Shown here: positions 3,279 to 63,968 of the stretch, in pieces
Layout of the letters: each line of letters starts with the position of its first letter
How positions within the stretch are numbered: position 1 is the stretch's first letter
Source: Escherichia phage APCEc01
DNA: 64,000 bases
Direction: 5' to 3' (one strand)
Sequence record: NC_029091.1
Notes under the pieces: generated by a model
Databases searched by the model: none
The model's input: only the letters and a program-made list of their open reading frames with translations
What the model was told of the DNA's origin: nothing
Translations under genes and position numbers: made by a program

Positions 3279-4196
3279 ATGGATTTAGAAATGATGTTGG
3301 ATGAAGATTACAAAGAAGGTATTGCACTTGCCGACTTTAGTAACATTGCATTGGCAGCCGCATTAAACAACTTTGAAGACGGCGATAAAATTACTGTTCC
3401 GATGGTTCGCCATGTAATCTTGAATTCAATTCGTAAAAACGTAGTGATGTTCCGTAAGCAAGGCTATACAAAATTTGTATTGTGTATGGATAATGCTACT
3501 TCAGGTTATTGGCGTCGTGACTTTGCTTACTATTACAAGAAAAATCGTAAAACCGATCGTGAAGCTTCAAAGTGGGATTGGGAAGGATATTTTACTGCAC
3601 TCCATCAAGTTGTTGATGAGATTAAGAAATACATGCCATACGTTGTAATGGATATTGACAAGTATGAAGCGGATGACCATATCGGTGTATTAACTAAATA
3701 TTTGTCATTAGCCGGTCATAAGGTATGTATTGTTGCATCAGATGGTGACTTTACACAATTACACAAATATCCTAACGTTAAACAGTGGTCGCCACCACAG
3801 AAAAAATGGGTTAAAATTAAGAACGGTTCTGCTGAAATTGATTGCATGACTAAAATCCTTAAAGGTGACCGTAAGGATGGTGTTGCATCTGTTCGAGTTC
3901 GTGGTGACTTCTGGTTTACTCGAGTTGAAGGTGAACGAACTCCGAGCATGAAAACAACGATTATTGAAGCAATTGCCAATGACCGTTCTCAAGCTGAAGT
4001 ATTATTAAGTGCAGAAGAATATAAACGGTATCAAGAAAATTTGGTTCTCATTGATTTTGATTATATCCCTGATAATATTGCTTCAACCATTATAGAGTAT
4101 TATAACTCATATAAACCACAACCTAAAGGCAAGATTTATTCATACTTTGTAAAATCTGGTCTTTCTAAATTAACAAGTGTAATTAATGAATTCTGA
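3279..4196 (+). CDS. rnh: RNase H (5-prime to 3-prime exonuclease/flap endonuclease)
   Basis: 305 aa, same length and genomic position as T4 rnh; RBS agagg. Confidence 0.85.
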   Translation: MDLEMMLDEDYKEGIALADFSNIALAAALNNFEDGDKITVPMVRHVILNSIRKNVVMFRKQGYTKFVLCMDNATSGYWRRDFAYYYKKNRKTDREASKWDWEGYFTALHQVVDEIKKYMPYVVMDIDKYEADDHIGVLTKYLSLAGHKVCIVASDGDFTQLHKYPNVKQWSPPQKKWVKIKNGSAEIDCMTKILKGDRKDGVASVRVRGDFWFTRVEGERTPSMKTTIIEAIANDRSQAEVLLSAEEYKRYQENLVLIDFDYIPDNIASTIIEYYNSYKPQPKGKIYSYFVKSGLSKLTSVINEF

Positions 4197-4203
4197 GGTA
4201 AAC

Positions 4204-4473
4204 ATGGCTAAGAAAGAAGCAGTTGAATTTAATCAAGATGTGCATGGTGAAGAACTGGCTAAACTAGTCAAGGAAGCTTCCGATAACAAACTTAAAATTT
4301 CTGGTTATAATGAACTGATTAAAGACATTCGTACTCGTGCTAAAGAAGAGCTTGGTGTCGATGGAAAAATGTTTAATCGTTTGTTAGCTCTTTATCATAA
4401 AGACGCTCGTGATCAATTTGAAGCTGAAAACGAAGAGGTAGTCGAGCTTTATGACACAGTTTTCACTAAGTGA
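4204..4473 (+). CDS. dsbA: dsDNA-binding protein DsbA (late transcription enhancer)
   Basis: 89 aa from internal ATG with RBS gaggta; position between rnh and gene 33 as in T4. Confidence 0.7.
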   Translation: MAKKEAVEFNQDVHGEELAKLVKEASDNKLKISGYNELIKDIRTRAKEELGVDGKMFNRLLALYHKDARDQFEAENEEVVELYDTVFTK

Positions 4474-6466: not shown

Positions 6467-6488
6467 GGGAGACTTCGGTCTCCCTTTT
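6467..6488 (+). terminator. Rho-independent terminator after gene 32
   Basis: gggagac ttcg gtctccc followed by tttt. Confidence 0.8.
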
Positions 6489-6515
6489 GAGTATCTGTAA
6501 ATTGCCGAAAAAGTT

Positions 6516-6544
6516 GTTTACTTCTTCCCTGGATGTGTTAGTAT
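6516..6544 (+). promoter_or_regulatory. Sigma70-type early promoter
   Basis: GTTTAC, 17 nt, TGtTAGTAT; followed by conserved leader ending caacaacatgaggaaa before the ATG. Confidence 0.6.
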
Positions 6545-6573
6545 AGACCTATCAACAACATGAGGAAATCAAA

Positions 6574-6966
6574 ATGGAAATCGGAAAATCTTATATCATT
6601 AACCCTTTATTTAAAGATGACTTTGTTCAAGAAGCACCACACAATAATGCTAAGATGTTAAAATTGATTGAACTCCACGGGCCTAGTTTTGTTGTAAACG
6701 GAATGGAACCTGATTATGATAGCGATACGTCAAACGTAGTAAGTGTAACTATGGAAGATGGTACTGTATGTTCTGCCGGTGGTGAAATTGAAACTTATTT
6801 TGAGATTTATCCTGACGAGTTCAAATACTTTACTGAGGTAGATATAGTAAAGCCTCAACCTACTAACGAAGGTATAGCTTTAGGTGTAACAAAAATCCAT
6901 TGTATCGTAGATGAAACCAACGTCGACGAAATCATCGAACTTTTGCAAAAAACTTTTAAAAAGTAG
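6574..6966 (+). CDS. Hypothetical early protein (frd.3-position ORF)
   Basis: 130-aa ORF with RBS gagga, own early promoter; no recognisable motif. Confidence 0.5.
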   Translation: MEIGKSYIINPLFKDDFVQEAPHNNAKMLKLIELHGPSFVVNGMEPDYDSDTSNVVSVTMEDGTVCSAGGEIETYFEIYPDEFKYFTEVDIVKPQPTNEGIALGVTKIHCIVDETNVDEIIELLQKTFKK

Positions 6967-7277: not shown

Positions 7278-7279
7278 TT

Positions 7280-8965
<1,686 letters not shown>

Positions 8966-12823: not shown

Positions 12824-13234
12824 ATGAAAGATATCGCCGCCGAATATTCCTTTATTAAATATACAGAATTGGAGCTATTAGAAGATGCAACAATTAAAAC
12901 AGTTGATGTCCCTAATAAGAAAAATGTCATATATGCTATTGCTATAGATGACGAACTTGTGTATATTGGTAAAACCAAGAATTTAAAGAAACGCATTAAC
13001 TATTATCGAACAGCCATAAATCGAAAAGACCAGACTTCAGATTCAAGAAAATCACTTATGATTTTGGATGCCTTAATGCAAGGCAAAAAGGTTGAATTCT
13101 GGGCCCGCCAATGTTTTGACCTTTCAGTCACCAACGAACTTGGTTCAATGACCATCGCAACAATGGACCTTGAAGAACCGCTTTTTATCAAAAAGTTCAA
13201 CCCGCCTTGGAATATCCAACATAAGAAAAAGTAG
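12824..13234 (+). CDS. denA: Endonuclease II (GIY-YIG-type)
   Basis: 136 aa; YIGKTKNLKKRINYYR motif; matches recalled T4 EndoII. Confidence 0.85.
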   Translation: MKDIAAEYSFIKYTELELLEDATIKTVDVPNKKNVIYAIAIDDELVYIGKTKNLKKRINYYRTAINRKDQTSDSRKSLMILDALMQGKKVEFWARQCFDLSVTNELGSMTIATMDLEEPLFIKKFNPPWNIQHKKK

Positions 13235-17948: not shown

Positions 17949-17978
17949 GTTTACAACATGGTGGAGTTGTGATACTAT
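17949..17978 (+). promoter_or_regulatory. Sigma70-type early promoter
   Basis: GTTTAC, 18 nt, TGaTACTAT; conserved leader ccaacaaatgaggaaa. Confidence 0.6.
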
Positions 17979-18363: not shown

Positions 18364-19356
18364 ATGTTACCTGTCGTCGGAAAACTTATTTCTCCAAAAG
18401 AACTGGCTGAGATTATTCCTTTGTCGGAAGCTTACGCGTCACAAGTGGTTTCTCATCGCGAACAAGTTAATTCGATTATGAACGGTGAAGACCCACGCAA
18501 ACTTATTGTTGTAGGTCCTTGTTCAATTCATGACCCTATTGCTGCTGTTGAATACGGCAAACGTCTGGCTGAACTTCAAACTCGTCTTCCTAATGTTCTG
18601 TTAGTGATGCGCGTTTATTTTGAAAAGCCTCGAACTACCGTAGGTTGGAAAGGTCTTGTAAATGATCCATATCTTGACGGAAGTTTTGATATGAACCACG
18701 GTCTTATAGTTGCACGAACATTGTGTCGTAAACTTCTACGTATGGGACTTCCATTAGCAACTGAAGTATTAGACCCATTCACGATTAAGTATCTTTCTGG
18801 TATTTTCTCATGGGTTGCTATTGGCGCCCGTACGACTGAAAGTCAGACACATCGTGAAATTGCTTCAGGTCTACCGATGTGCGTAGGCTTCAAGAACGCA
18901 ACCAATGGTTCTATTAAAGTAGCTACAGACGCGATGTATAGTGCCGCCTGGCCTCATCGGTATATGGGTATGGACGTCGATGGTACTGTAGGCATTGTTG
19001 AAGCTGAAGGTAATCAGAATACGCATATCGTATTGCGTGGTGGGACCAACGGTCCGAACTATCATTCTTCTGATATTCAAGAAGCTTCTAACAAAGCAAG
19101 GGCAGTAGGTCTGAATCATTATGTAATGGTTGACTGTAGCCATGCAAACGCTGATGGGCATTATAGCAATCAAATTGGTATTGGTAAAAATTTAGCAGCT
19201 AATGATTTGGTCAAAGGAATTATGATAGAATCGTTCCTACATGAAGGAAATCAAAAAATTTCTGATAATATGTCCTATGGCGTTTCCGTTACCGATGCGT
19301 GCATCAGTTGGGAACAAACTAAAGAGCTGTTAACTTATATTAATAAGGTTCAATAA
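18364..19356 (+). CDS. 3-deoxy-D-arabino-heptulosonate 7-phosphate (DAHP) synthase, AroG/AroF-type class I
   Basis: 330 aa; motifs GPCSIHD, KPRTTVGWKGL, GARTTESQ, CSHANA, IESFLHEGNQ, TDACISW correspond to conserved and metal-ligand regions of E. coli AroG. Confidence 0.85.
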   Translation: MLPVVGKLISPKELAEIIPLSEAYASQVVSHREQVNSIMNGEDPRKLIVVGPCSIHDPIAAVEYGKRLAELQTRLPNVLLVMRVYFEKPRTTVGWKGLVNDPYLDGSFDMNHGLIVARTLCRKLLRMGLPLATEVLDPFTIKYLSGIFSWVAIGARTTESQTHREIASGLPMCVGFKNATNGSIKVATDAMYSAAWPHRYMGMDVDGTVGIVEAEGNQNTHIVLRGGTNGPNYHSSDIQEASNKARAVGLNHYVMVDCSHANADGHYSNQIGIGKNLAANDLVKGIMIESFLHEGNQKISDNMSYGVSVTDACISWEQTKELLTYINKVQ

Positions 19357-19938: not shown

Positions 19939-20235
19939 ATGATTTTAACTGAACAAGAAACTATGGTTCTTCGTGAACGTATTAAAACTATTCTGTCTGT
20001 AGGCGTTCATTGTGTTGTATTTGAAAAGGCTAACGGTGATGTTCGTACGATGTTTGCCTCCCGCGATGAACTTGAAGTCAAATATGAAAATAACAATCCG
20101 GCAACAGAAGTTCGTTATGAACCTCGTGAATCAGTTCGAGCATTCGATACCAAGTTAGGTCAGTGGCGTTCTTTCCGCCTTGATAAAGTAATTTCGGTTG
20201 ATGGTACTCCGGTAGAACGTTTGCTTCTTATGTAA
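19939..20235 (+). CDS. Hypothetical protein
   Basis: 98 aa from the ATG two nt after the cd stop. Confidence 0.45.
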   Translation: MILTEQETMVLRERIKTILSVGVHCVVFEKANGDVRTMFASRDELEVKYENNNPATEVRYEPRESVRAFDTKLGQWRSFRLDKVISVDGTPVERLLLM

Positions 20236-20262
20236 TATGCTTTACGACTAGTATGATATTAT
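20235..20262 (+). promoter_or_regulatory. MotA-dependent middle promoter upstream of gene 31
   Basis: MotA box atatGCTTtA about 12 nt upstream of TATTAT. Confidence 0.5.
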
Positions 20263-20292
20263 TAATCTATCGTCAAACAACAAGGAAATAAG

Positions 20293-20625
20293 ATGTCTGA
20301 AGTACAACTCCCAATTCGTGCTGTTGGTGAATATGTCATTCTGGTTTCTGAACCCGCTCAAGCAGGTGATGAAGAAGTTACAGAATCAGGACTTGTGATT
20401 GGTAAACGTGTTCAAGGTGAAGTTCCTGAACTATGTGTAGTTCATTCTGTAGGTCCTGATGTTCCTGAAGGTTTTGTTGAAGTCGGTGATTTGACTCCAC
20501 TACCAGTTGGACAAATTCGAAATGTTCCACATCCATTTGTGGCTTTGGGACTTAAACAACCTAAAGAAATTAAACAGAAATTCGTAACATGCCACTATAA
20601 AGCTATTCCGTGTCTTTATAAGTGA
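20293..20625 (+). CDS. 31: Co-chaperonin gp31 (GroES analogue for capsid folding)
   Basis: 110 aa; near-identical to recalled T4 gp31 ([34 protein letters not shown]...). Confidence 0.9.
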
Positions 20626-20749
20626 TATAAATAACTATATGAAGAGAACACTCTTCTAAGCGGTAGCCTACAACTGAGAGACTTGTCGAAAGAAGGTGAA
20701 ATTCAGACGAACGTGGCTACTAAATATTATCTCGAATTGAGAATTTAAA

Positions 20750-20998
20750 ATGATTAAACAATTACAACACGCTCTTGAACTGCAACGAAACGCATGGAAT
20801 AACGGTCACGAAAACTACGGCGCGTCGATTGATGTTGAAGCCGAAGCACTGGAAATCCTGCATTATTTCAAACATCTGAACCCGGTACAGGCAGCTTTGG
20901 CTTCTGAACTGGAAGCAAAAGATGAACTGAAATATGCTAAGCCTTTGGCTTCTGCAGCTCGTAAAGCAGTACGTCATTTTGTTATTACCCTTAAATAA
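20750..20998 (+). CDS. rIII: rIII lysis inhibition accessory protein
   Basis: 82 aa; length and position between 31 and the 30.x region as in T4. Confidence 0.75.
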   Translation: MIKQLQHALELQRNAWNNGHENYGASIDVEAEALEILHYFKHLNPVQAALASELEAKDELKYAKPLASAARKAVRHFVITLK

Positions 20999-21253
20999 GT
21001 TTTAGGTGATTCGCTACCTTAAGTGCGGCTAGAAAATCGAGGAGCCGTCGAACTGTCTGATTAATGATTTGCGAATCATTATAGTTTTAAGGCCCCGGCA
21101 GTTTTACGGTGTACCTCTTGAATGTATTTTGTACTATCACGCGTCAGAAAAAGGTTATCTGTCTAAGTCGTGGTTGGTATGATGACGGGTTTATGGTTAT
21201 CCTGTCGGTAAATATTCAAAACCTAAGTACCCCTTTGAGGGCTTTCGCAGGCA

Positions 21254-21472
21254 ATGCCAATAAGTCCTGCATTTTCATTTAAAAGAGAATTTATAATGGC
21301 AAAACAAGTTAAAGCAAAGAAAGCAGTTGAAAAGAAAGTTGGTGATTCTAAACGCGCTGGCTACAAGCGTGGGTCGAACTCTCGTATCAATCAAACTGTT
21401 GAGAAGATCATGCGCCGAGCACGTGCGGTTCTTCGAGATGATGCTTCTCGTTTTGGAAAGGTTGTTGCATAA
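21254..21472 (+). CDS. Small highly basic protein (start uncertain; alternative ATG at 21296)
   Basis: Lys/Arg-rich sequence MAKQVKAKKAVEKKVGDSKRAGYKRGSNSR...; followed by a strong terminator. Confidence 0.45.
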   Translation: MPISPAFSFKREFIMAKQVKAKKAVEKKVGDSKRAGYKRGSNSRINQTVEKIMRRARAVLRDDASRFGKVVA

Positions 21473-21477
21473 TTTTA

Positions 21478-21499
21478 GGGAGACTTCGGTCTCCCTTTT
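21478..21499 (+). terminator. Rho-independent terminator
   Basis: gggagac ttcg gtctccc tttt, identical to the hairpin after gene 32. Confidence 0.8.
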
Positions 21500-21531
21500 G
21501 TGCGTTTAGGGCGGAAAAAGTTTAAAAAGAT

Positions 21532-21560
21532 GTTTACTCTCCTGTAGGATGTGTTACTAT
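21532..21560 (+). promoter_or_regulatory. Sigma70-type early promoter
   Basis: GTTTAC, 17 nt, TGtTACTAT. Confidence 0.6.
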
Positions 21561-21602
21561 AGACTTGTACCACCTAATCAATAAAACAACCTGGAGAACA
21601 AA

Positions 21603-21971
21603 ATGAAAATCAATCTGAACTCATACATCAAATGTAAAGACCATGATGGTTATAAAGCTATCGAAATTAAAGAATTCCAGTGGATGTTATACAAAGAGCA
21701 ATTTGAGTTCGTAGGTTGTATGACCCCTGAAGGTCCTTCTGATGATTTCTCTTGGAAAATTGTGTTAGCAAACTTTTTCACAGGTGACACATACGAATTA
21801 AAAACTATTATTACCGGTAAAATTCGTTCAGAAACATATGTTGACGAAGAAACTGGTTACTCTGAAGATGTTACATGGTATCAAAATGGACGCATTACCG
21901 CAGATAACCTGATCGAAAAAATGAAAGCCAAAGGTGTTTTAAATTTAGACAATTGGATTAAAGTTGCATAA
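21603..21971 (+). CDS. Hypothetical early protein
   Basis: 122-aa ORF, RBS ggag, own early promoter. Confidence 0.5.
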   Translation: MKINLNSYIKCKDHDGYKAIEIKEFQWMLYKEQFEFVGCMTPEGPSDDFSWKIVLANFFTGDTYELKTIITGKIRSETYVDEETGYSEDVTWYQNGRITADNLIEKMKAKGVLNLDNWIKVA

Positions 21972-21975
21972 AACA

Positions 21976-22004
21976 GTTTACTTTGGTACAGGTTATGTTA
22001 TTAT
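21976..22004 (+). promoter_or_regulatory. Sigma70-type early promoter
   Basis: GTTTAC, 17 nt, TGtTATTAT; flanked by 10-bp inverted repeat tggtacaggt/acctgtacca. Confidence 0.55.
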
Positions 22005-22045
22005 AGACCTGTACCAACAAACAACTTAAACATCTGGAGAATAAA

Positions 22046-22411
22046 ATGAACTACACCAACTTCGAACGTAAATATGTTTCTAACGGTATTGCTGGTTCTT
22101 CTGAAGTTATTTGCTTATGGAAACACGAAAACGGTACAGTTTGTGAAATCGAACAGTGCATGACTCCTAATTACGTTTATATGCGATTTGAAAATGGTAT
22201 CACGGTTTCAATCACGATGGAAGGTTCAAATTTTAAAATTGCATTAGATGATGATTTCCGTCAGCGTGATTTAGGTACTCATCCTTGCTGGAATGGTGTT
22301 AATCGTAAACTTCTGGTTAAAACTTGGATTCGTCATATCCTGAGTAACCGAGCTAAACCTGAACATCTTGAAGCAATCTTTGATGTAGTTCTTAACGAAT
22401 TTGATATCTAA
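22046..22411 (+). CDS. Hypothetical early protein
   Basis: 121-aa ORF, RBS ggag, own early promoter. Confidence 0.5.
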   Translation: MNYTNFERKYVSNGIAGSSEVICLWKHENGTVCEIEQCMTPNYVYMRFENGITVSITMEGSNFKIALDDDFRQRDLGTHPCWNGVNRKLLVKTWIRHILSNRAKPEHLEAIFDVVLNEFDI

Positions 22412-22418
22412 ATTAATT

Positions 22419-22434
22419 GGGAGCCGAAGCTCCC
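22419..22434 (+). other. GC hairpin without U tract (gggagc cgaa gctccc)
   Basis: Perfect 6-bp stem; the track ORF TTG start lies inside it. Confidence 0.5.
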
Positions 22435-22446
22435 ACTGAGGAAATT

Positions 22447-23061
22447 ATGTTTAAAGTTAATACTTTTTATAAAATGAATTTTAAAAATGGGGATATTACT
22501 CCACACCTTAAAAACATGTTCTCATATGACCTTATTGAGCCTTTTGAAGTTTTAGAAGTTACTGATGCCGGCTCAGTTTGTGAAATTAGAACTTCTGAAG
22601 GTAAAATTTATCAGGCCGGTGTTGGTAAATTCAGTAATTGTTTTACTTTAATATTCTCGACCGATTTAGATGAGCATTTTATTGAATGTCCTAACCCTAA
22701 GGTCTATGAAGTTCCACATCAAGAAACTAAGAAAAATGGACCGCACGAATATACGAAGGTTGAAACTCCTCACGGCGTGATGTGGCGACATAACTCTCCT
22801 TTTGGAAGTAAAGGAACATTTGCTCAACTGGCTAAGCCCTACGACGATGAAAAATATGTAGTAGTCCTTTTATCTGAACAGGGTACTCAAGACCGTGGAT
22901 GCCAGCGTTCTGGTTTATTGAGTGAACTCGAAGCTCATAACCTAGCACGTGAATTCGTTGAGAAAAATCCTGGTTCTGAAGCTCTAGTCATGAAAGCAAT
23001 TACTCAATATATCACTGCTCAACCTGTTGTTCATCCGGTAGAAATTAATTTCATTAAGTAG
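22447..23061 (+). CDS. Hypothetical protein
   Basis: 204 aa from ATG with RBS gagga downstream of the hairpin. Confidence 0.5.
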   Translation: MFKVNTFYKMNFKNGDITPHLKNMFSYDLIEPFEVLEVTDAGSVCEIRTSEGKIYQAGVGKFSNCFTLIFSTDLDEHFIECPNPKVYEVPHQETKKNGPHEYTKVETPHGVMWRHNSPFGSKGTFAQLAKPYDDEKYVVVLLSEQGTQDRGCQRSGLLSELEAHNLAREFVEKNPGSEALVMKAITQYITAQPVVHPVEINFIK

Positions 23062-23115
23062 TGTACATCCAAGGACGGATTAGAGTATAATGATTTCTTT
23101 AGTAAGTGGAAAAAT

Positions 23116-23313
23116 ATGAAATTTTTAATAGCACAAACAGTCCAATTAAAAGGTGTTGGAATCCCTGGGATGATTTTTAAAGTTCTCAACGAATTTAAAA
23201 CTGCCGCTGGAATTATCAATGAAGCGTATGCTGTTCAATGGGTTGATGGGACTTCTGACATACGTATGGGTAAAGAGTTATCTCCTATTAAAGGGTTGAA
23301 ACATGTTGAATAA
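23116..23313 (+). CDS. Hypothetical protein
   Basis: 65-aa ORF. Confidence 0.35.
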   Translation: MKFLIAQTVQLKGVGIPGMIFKVLNEFKTAAGIINEAYAVQWVDGTSDIRMGKELSPIKGLKHVE

Positions 23314-23521
23314 ATTAATCCAGAAATTGTTTGGTACGGAAATGATTGAAGTTACTTATCGTGTAACCGACGTTTTTCCATATTACGCGGAAAACCGTTT
23401 AGAACCATACGTTACGTCAATTAAAATGCCTAAAAATGACAGAAATTTATCTATCGAAGACCGTATACCTGGATACGGACATTGGGCTGATGTTGAAATT
23501 ATAAGTGTTAAAGATGTCTGA
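23303..23521 (+). CDS. Hypothetical protein
   Basis: 72-aa ORF. Confidence 0.35.
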   Translation: MLNKLIQKLFGTEMIEVTYRVTDVFPYYAENRLEPYVTSIKMPKNDRNLSIEDRIPGYGHWADVEIISVKDV

Positions 23522-29245: not shown

Positions 29246-29254
29246 ACCCCTAAA

Positions 29255-29276
29255 GGGAGACAACGTCTCCCTTTTT
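29255..29276 (+). terminator. Rho-independent terminator at early/late boundary (before convergent gene 54)
   Basis: gggagac aac gtctccc ttttt. Confidence 0.8.
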
Positions 29277-44553: not shown

Positions 44554-44581
44554 AACCAAAAATGGGAGACCGAAGTCTCCC
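44554..44581 (-). terminator. Rho-independent terminator after gene 23 (minus-strand orientation)
   Basis: gggagac cgaa gtctccc, reverse complement of the gene 32 terminator hairpin; U tract on minus strand. Confidence 0.75.
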
Positions 44582-63940: not shown

Positions 63941-63968
63941 ATACAAAAATGGGAGCCCGAAGGCTCCC
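63941..63968 (-). terminator. Rho-independent terminator (minus strand), presumably ending the upstream gene 8 transcript
   Basis: gggagcc cgaa ggctccc with U tract on minus strand. Confidence 0.7.

Follow-up and report, generated by a model that had tools for sequence, protein, structure and literature searches.

The features between genes 30.9 and 30.8

The 64,000-nt stretch of DNA analysed here (the window) derives, to judge from its nucleotide identities, from a Mosigvirus, an RB69-like coliphage of the T4 type. Over 3 kb around the element described below, the window and Shigella phage JK36 share 99.3% identity; the best 40 of 954 matching records are Mosigvirus-type (RB69-like) Tevenvirinae phages that are 96–99% identical. 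Comparison with the annotated relatives ATK47, WFK and RB69 puts the ORFs of the plus strand in T4 order (pseT ... cd, 31.1, 31, rIII, 30.9, 30.8, 30.7 ... 30, alt), and Pfam assigns 30.8 to PF06019 and 30.7 to PF06919. The element therefore sits in the intergenic spacer between 30.9 and 30.8 (Table 1), which agrees with an earlier note, made from the letters of the window, that a terminator and an early promoter separate the gene for a small basic protein from a run of accessory ORFs. A Pfam search with the 30.9 protein returned no match. For annotation purposes the element marks the boundary between two transcription units, 31-rIII-30.9 before it and the genes from 30.8 on after it.

Table 1. 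Coordinates of the element, of its neighbouring genes and of related features in the window.
Feature	Position	Strand	Description
Gene 30.9	21296..21472	+	ORF; 58-aa basic protein, function not assigned; named 30.9 in ATK47, RB69, CC31 and T6
Predicted intrinsic terminator	21477..21499	+	8-bp stem; core GGGAGAC-UUCG-GUCUCCC 21478-21495; U4 tract 21496-21499
UP-element-like AT-rich part	21510..21531	+	Two A-tracts, GGCGGAAAAAGTT and TAAAAAGAT, ~10 bp apart
Predicted T4-type early promoter	21532..21560	+	GTTTAC 21532-21537; TG 21552-21553; TACTAT 21555-21560
Shine-Dalgarno and start of 30.8	21593..21605	+	GGAG 21593-21596; ATG 21603; RBS annotated in TuIa
Gene 30.8	21603..21971	+	ORF downstream of the cassette promoter; 122 aa; PF06019, E = 6.7e-44
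Next early promoter, for 30.7	21976..22004	+	Without hairpin; 72.5% identical to the promoter at 21532
Copy 1 cassette	6467..6544	+	After gene 32; hairpin 6467-6484, TTTTG, A-tract, GTTTAC..TAGTAT promoter 6516-6544
Third identical hairpin	44564..44581	-	After gene 23 (major capsid protein); predicted terminator only, without early promoter

The 18-nt cUUCGg hairpin (GGGAGACTTCGGTCTCCC, 21478–21495 on the plus strand) begins 5 nt past the TAA stop codon of 30.9 (21470–21472), exactly where the earlier note had drawn it. An additional A-U pair lengthens the stem to 8 bp (21477–21496), six of the eight pairs are G-C, and the UUCG-capped stem leads into a UUUU tail (TTTT at 21496–21499) and then GUGCGUUU. 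Folded as RNA in a 41-nt context, the hairpin has a free energy of -19.2 kcal/mol (z = -6.1). The run of U residues is found 3' of the hairpin on the plus strand only, the corresponding tail on the minus strand reading UAAAAUUA, and it is short and interrupted (UUUUGUGCGUUU).

Starting 36 nt downstream of the hairpin is a promoter that by its composition belongs to the T4-type early class, with GTTTAC, TGn, a TAnnAT-type -10, an A/T-rich UP region and an orientation towards the downstream gene. T4 early promoters have been described as 'UP/-35/TGn/-10' promoters with additional consensus, in which upstream A-tracts of this kind have an UP-element role (PMC2988021). A-rich tracts are also present upstream of other GTTTAC promoters of the window, for example those at 13234, 15823 and 21976. 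In the 64-kb window 11 sites fit the strict pattern GTTTAC-N16-18-TAnn[AT]T, where 2.5 would be expected, and the consensus common to them continues beyond the -10. Here 16 nt separate the -35 from the -10, as against 17 nt in most promoters of the class in the window, and the likely start site falls at ~21566–21569. A GTTTAC -35 with a TAnnAT-type -10 occupies the interval between hairpin and 30.8 in T6, PD112, EAWsc9, Marfa, CC31, 4S, KMB20, CGG4-1 and EcS1, that is, in every genus examined, and the TuIa record annotates -35 and -10 signals at the same site; the GTTTAC early promoter proposed in the earlier note is thus borne out. Generic scans for terminators and for sigma-70 promoters listed neither signal. 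The hairpin was missed because of its short T-tail, with only four T in the 8 nt after the 8-bp stem, and the promoter because its -35 is not of the host type, since it matches TTGACA/TATAAT at 8/12 positions and fits the phage early consensus instead. Such scans are uninformative for this element.

GGAG, the sequence that precedes the start codon of 30.8, is the target of the RegB endoribonuclease in T4 early mRNAs, and RegB is reported to cut the T4 30.7 early mRNA at its GGAG Shine-Dalgarno (PMC9409239). The accessory ORFs further downstream had each been credited with a promoter of their own; this holds for 30.8, 30.7 and 30.5, each of which has an early promoter, but not for 30.6A, which is preceded by a stem-loop and RBS only, nor for genes 30.4 to 30, which abut or overlap and among which no early-consensus promoter was found. 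The stem-loop in question, TGGGAGC-CGAA-GCTCCCA at 22418–22435 (+), reads UUCG on the minus strand and stands ahead of a 204-aa ORF (22447–23061, +) that corresponds to '30.6A' of TuIa and, together with 30.5, stands in place of RB69 30.6. Homology to RB69 and T6 ends at 22453, just past this hairpin.

Three further observations concern the region upstream. The body of 30.9 (21296–21460) shows ~100% nucleotide identity over ~190 nt to T6, a phage of another genus, as against ~82–92% in the flanking genes, a contrast that points to a very recent exchange or else to a nucleotide-level constraint of an unusual kind on this gene. The spacer between rIII and 30.9 (20999–21295, +) comprises ~300 nt without a convincing ORF, a patch of it at ~21035–21085 is 100% identical to T6, and one relative annotates an 'ori type 2 repeat' there; the idea that these 300 nt form a structured RNA was rejected, as the fold is not significant (z = -1.1) and there is no Rfam match. 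At 18364–19356 (+), between the ORFs on the pseT side and cd, lies a 330-aa AroG-like DAHP synthase (PF00793, E = 5e-75), a host-like gene of aromatic amino-acid biosynthesis that is annotated in ATK47 and that RB69 and T6 lack in their syntenic regions.

The hairpin across lineages and its copies in the window

The sequence that follows 30.9 was taken from nine further genus-level lineages, namely T6 and PD112 (Tequatrovirus), EAWsc9 (Gaprivervirus), CC31 and KMB20 (Karamvirus), CGG4-1 (Gelderlandvirus), EcS1 (Kagamiyamavirus), Marfa and Serratia 4S. In all nine a GC-rich tetraloop hairpin with a T-run is present within ~20 nt of the 30.9 stop codon, with stems that differ among the lineages (GGACTCC, GGGACTC, GGGACTCC, GGGGCTCC). 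When the hairpins were aligned on the loop, an alignment in which some may be replacements and not direct descendants, 64/64 cells were standard-paired, with five of the eight pairs altered on both sides; sliding the partners by 1–3 columns as a control left pairing in only 27–66% of cells. Whether by descent or by replacement, the 30.9 hairpin keeps its position and structure across these lineages, and not its sequence.

The exact 18-mer also turns up in IMG/VR, in over 120 stretches whose flanks are unrelated and whose GC content ranges from 30 to 57%. At least five T are present in the 8 nt after it in 107 of 122 occurrences in these unrelated viral contigs, compared with 28 on the opposite strand. 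Among GenBank relatives the hairpin is annotated as a terminator in ATK47 (by ARNold) and in WFK (-16.3 kcal/mol), and as a stem_loop in TuIa. An Rfam search over 20000–23500 (E up to 1) gave two chance-level matches only and no known RNA family. The assignment of the hairpin with its U4 tract as a predicted intrinsic terminator, as the earlier note had it, is thus strongly supported by its place just past the stop codon, by U residues on the plus strand only, by the compensatory changes in the stem and by the annotation of relatives. The same lines of evidence strongly support the prediction that the hairpin forms the end of the 30.9 transcript. With a tract as short as UUUUGUGCGUUU, termination may be partial (attenuation).

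Every orthologous 30.9 terminator (that of the window and those of T6, EAWsc9, CC31, Marfa, 4S, KMB20, CGG4-1 and EcS1) also contains GGAG, the RegB motif, either on one arm or across loop and arm, and several other terminators of the window and of T6 are without it. This may be coincidence or shared descent.

The exact 18-mer is found at three sites of the window, 6467 (+), 21478 (+) and 44564 (-), where none was expected (100 shuffles); by comparison with RB69, these copies follow genes 32, 30.9 and 23. The hairpin after gene 32 in RB69 is identical to that of copy 1, and the end of gene 23 in RB69 carries the same hairpin sequence as the window. C(UUCG)G hairpins were first described in T4 mRNAs in 1988 (PMC4371310). 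Those described in T4 resemble the ones here, that of gene 32 of the window included, in standing at the 3' end of phage genes and in having a UUCG tetraloop with a C-G closing pair; the terminator of T6 gene 32 differs, being GGGGACC-CUAGA-GGUCCCC and not a UUCG hairpin.

The earlier note had described the hairpin and promoter at 21478 as the second copy of a repeated cassette with shared spacer homology. The identity of the two 18-nt stem-loops was confirmed, and the longest run common to copies 1 and 2 extends to 23 nt (hairpin plus TTTTG). The promoter halves, anchored on the -10, are 55% identical, as against a mean of 47% (sd 10) over 55 promoter pairs. A special kinship of the copy 2 promoter with that of copy 1 was therefore rejected: 55% is within the range of the class, and the closest relative is the adjacent 30.7 promoter. 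Thus the hairpin is identical and the architecture is repeated, and the likeness of the two promoters is the ordinary one of a class consensus. The spacer string GC(C/G)GAAAAAGTT matches at 11/12 positions between the copies. Its local alignment score of 19 was reached in 10 of 2000 shuffles (p ~0.005) and was the best among 10 natural promoter-upstream controls, of which the next reached 17 and 16, so that the shared spacer homology is real but weak.

A GC-rich stem-loop within 110 nt upstream is present at only 2 of the 11 early promoters of the window. Since nine of the 11 promoters have no hairpin and the hairpin after gene 23 has no promoter, the two parts are separable. The inference of common descent from the identity of the 18-mer is likewise weakened by its presence in the more than 120 unrelated viral contigs; two comparable cUUCGg hairpins, the first of them an arbitrary analogue, occur 48 and 105 times.

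Junctions in related phages and known cassettes of this kind

The recombination junctions that the earlier note had proposed to look for in related phages were found. Against T6, the identity of the window drops sharply at 21460, 12 nt ahead of the stop codon of 30.9; blastn detected no homology to T6 across the hairpin, the promoter and 30.8, and picked it up again exactly at 21976, where the next promoter begins. There are two alleles of 30.8, and the products of the window type and the T6 type are 37% identical. In PD112, a Tequatrovirus, the T6-type hairpin and promoter are joined to a 30.8 of the window type (89% amino acid identity), with the switch between the 5' UTR and the ATG. Over the phage collection, tblastn with gp30.8 gave 194 records at 80% identity or above, 207 at 60–80% and 631 below 60%, a broad split into a group of similar proteins and a T4/T6-like group below 60%.

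Two phages lack 30.8 altogether. In AV116, a Mosigvirus, a hybrid is found that is of the 21532 type up to TATAGACTTGTACCA and of the 21976 type thereafter, with the crossover in TATAGACyTGTACCA. In TuIa the 5' UTR of the 21532 type is kept and the switch is at GGAGAAyAAAATGAA, the segment of the Shine-Dalgarno and ATG. The difference between these junctions points to separate deletion events, and both crossovers lie within segments common to the two flanking cassettes. Other breaks are placed differently. Those of T6 and PD112, sharp mosaic breakpoints, sit at the edges of the cassette and not inside it; in CC31 and EcS1 a further small ORF separates the hairpin from the promoter; and LH2 has a deletion from early 30.8 into 30.4 with its junction inside coding sequence, which indicates that not every indel here uses cassettes. 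The idea that 30.8 is mobile, with ectopic copies, was rejected, since each of the 1032 records with the gene has one copy of it, and nothing in these comparisons speaks for a mobile cassette rather than for deletion or allele exchange.

At the copy 1 site, the gene 32 cassette of RB69 is followed at once by an additional 75-aa ORF (ORF245c) with the direct repeat ATCAACAAATGAG(A)GGAAA on both sides of it; the ORF lies in the 100001–150000 segment at reverse-complement coordinates 4038–4326. ORF245c is absent from the window (site 6545–6576), which has ~240 extra bp at 7278–7516 relative to RB69.

Elements of this kind are already known, and this one is already annotated in relatives (TuIa AJ621579, ATK47, WFK), so that it is nothing new in kind. 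Promoter-early stem-loops (PeSLs) were first described in RB49 and phi1, for which experiments demonstrated promoter activity, terminator activity and mini-circles formed by recombination from cassette to cassette (Arbiol et al., 2010; PMC2839356). The RB49/phi1 PeSLs are likewise composites of terminator and promoter, and the crossovers of the RB49 mini-circles fall in zones from the -10 to the Shine-Dalgarno/ATG, which match the junctions of AV116 and TuIa; the deletions of 30.8 agree with the model in which an ORF is excised between the two cassettes that flank it (PMC2839356). They differ in having near-perfect TTGACA/TATAAT promoters and a stem-loop that often overlaps the promoter (PMC2839356), and their activities were measured, those of the cassette here being predicted from sequence and comparison. 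The 2010 paper does not mention RB69.

According to a later paper (Comeau, Arbiol and Krisch, 2014; PMC4122927), PeSLs extend to T4/PST and KVP40/nt-1, with the stem-loop just upstream of the promoter, and the T-even promoter consensus is TTTACW-N17-TAYWAT. That paper gives the T4/PST PeSLs the layout seen here (stem-loop, AT-rich tract, TTTACW, TAYWAT, Shine-Dalgarno, ATG), places them likewise in the nonessential 30.x region and reports ORF deletion or replacement between close relatives. It describes a looser AGNA..TCNT stem and a 17-nt spacer, in contrast to the GC-rich GGGAGAC cUUCGg stem and 16 nt found here, and in the parts consulted makes no mention of RB69. Measured against these descriptions, the element has the intergenic stop-to-ATG position, the stable stem-loop upstream, the early promoter with an AT-rich tract, and the Shine-Dalgarno and ATG of a PeSL. 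Its promoter reads TTTACT-N16-TACTAT, with a spacer 1 nt under the stated N17. The indels expected of a PeSL are represented by the AV116 and TuIa deletions, the mosaic breaks of T6 and PD112 and the inserted ORF of CC31 and EcS1. With two full stem-loop and promoter cassettes among 11 early promoters in 64 kb, such elements are far sparser in the window than PeSLs are in RB49. The closest annotated counterpart is in TuIa (AJ621579.1, 30.7-30.6A-30.5 region), where a cassette 95% identical over 142 nt carries annotated stem_loop, -35, -10 and RBS; it differs in that it drives 30.7 directly, 30.8 being missing.

By itself the finding matters little: RB69-like phages order dispensable early genes with cassettes of the sort described for T4, PST, RB49 and KVP40-type phages. 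Its interest is that 30.8, set between two similar promoter cassettes and lost in two phages by different crossovers, is a clear case, taken from nature, of what the PeSL shuffling model describes.

A probable composite cassette and the alternatives

We consider it very probable that the element between 30.9 and 30.8 is a composite regulatory cassette of the PeSL kind, which would combine termination, early restart, insulation and homology for recombination. Transcripts arriving from upstream would fold into the very stable cUUCGg hairpin, with U4 behind it, and end or be attenuated just past 30.9, a step for which the support is strong. Three sites are candidate sources of these transcripts: the early promoter at 17949, a site like a MotA-type middle promoter that precedes gene 31 (20238), and the region's only late TATAAATA, which precedes rIII (20626). 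Given the predicted terminator and these three sites, it is plausible that transcripts of 31-rIII-30.9 from the early, middle and late periods stop at the hairpin and that the early promoter starts transcription afresh for the 30.x genes. Consensus and positional conservation support the view that host sigma-70 RNA polymerase, guided by the double A-tract, the GTTTAC -35, TGn and the TACTAT -10, would begin the early 30.8 transcript at ~21567. With its GGAG Shine-Dalgarno, this early mRNA would be a target of RegB. Together the signals would insulate the 31-rIII-30.9 unit, expressed in the middle and late periods, from the early-only, dispensable 30.x genes. Finally, the promoter and Shine-Dalgarno segments recur at the next gene and so supply short homologies for recombination, by which, as the comparison of genomes shows, 30.8 has been deleted at least twice.

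The alternative that carries most weight, though we still regard it as doubtful, is that hairpin and promoter are independent, ordinary signals that happen to be adjacent, that the likeness between copies is functional convergence, that no unit evolves or moves, and that the junctions reflect general T4 recombination at any microhomology. It accounts well for promoter halves no more alike than those of other members of the class, for the hairpin without a promoter after gene 23 and the nine promoters without a hairpin, for the use of the exact 18-mer as a terminator in so many unrelated viral contigs, and for the frequent occurrence of two comparable hairpins; a whole ORF parts the hairpin from the promoter in CC31 and EcS1, and 30.8 is found at no ectopic site. 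It accounts less well for two deletions of 30.8 that have different junctions and yet both fall inside repeated promoter/Shine-Dalgarno segments, for an order of hairpin and then promoter that is held in nine further lineages (with an ORF between them in two), and for a spacer match at 11/12 positions that is unlikely by chance.

Two other explanations concern the hairpin itself. It might serve mainly as a 3' stabiliser or processing barrier against 3'-5' exonucleases, with polymerase mostly reading through and no true termination. The short, interrupted U-tract would suit such a role, as would the exceptional stability of cUUCGg hairpins (PMC4371310) and the presence of identical hairpins at the ends of genes 32 and 23, the gene 32 mRNA being the most stable T4 message (PMC3014915). 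We nevertheless think it improbable that this is its main role, because a fresh promoter directly downstream would be largely redundant were read-through the rule, a T-run follows the hairpin in 107/122 occurrences elsewhere, and the RB49 PeSL stem-loops that were tested did terminate transcription (PMC2839356). The roles of stabiliser and terminator are not mutually exclusive. That the palindrome acts instead as DNA, as a cruciform, a protein-binding site, an origin or packaging signal, or a target for a homing endonuclease or recombinase, is very hard to credit. Arbiol et al. speculated that a recombination protein might bind conserved PeSL stems (PMC2839356), and the stem is reused at four sites of the window; but its sequence varies across genera while pairing is maintained, which points to structural constraint and not to sequence-specific recognition, the T-run is strongly strand-specific, the hairpin always lies just 3' of a stop codon, and Rfam gave no convincing match.

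The reuse of a single hairpin in one genome calls for separate comment. RB69 and the phage studied here have one and the same 18-mer after genes 32, 30.9 and 23, whereas T6 has three different hairpins at those sites; in other T4-like genomes of IMG/VR, GGACTCCTTCGGGAGTCC is found exactly at two or three loci each. Short-patch gene conversion among non-allelic terminators (concerted evolution), or a lineage-specific factor that recognises the hairpin, might explain this, a suggestion that we make tentatively and hold to be rather unlikely. Alternatively, the reuse could reflect independent convergence, as such hairpins are common, the arbitrary analogue alone occurring 48 times.

Related hairpins lie elsewhere in the window. 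A doubly compensated variant with two mismatches, GGGAGCC..GGCTCCC, is present at 63951 (-), where none is expected by chance. At 63951–63968 (-) it reads GGGAGCC-UUCG-GGCUCCC followed by a U-run, with TATAAATA within ~12 nt after it, and by these motifs it would be a composite of terminator and late promoter, analogous to the early cassette. At 29252–29274 (+), AAAGGGAGAC-AAC-GTCTCCCTTT combines the stem of the three exact copies with a loop of 3 nt and is flanked on either side by A/T runs; situated at the convergent junction of gene 54 and alt.-3 (the syntenic site in RB69), it looks like a bidirectional terminator.
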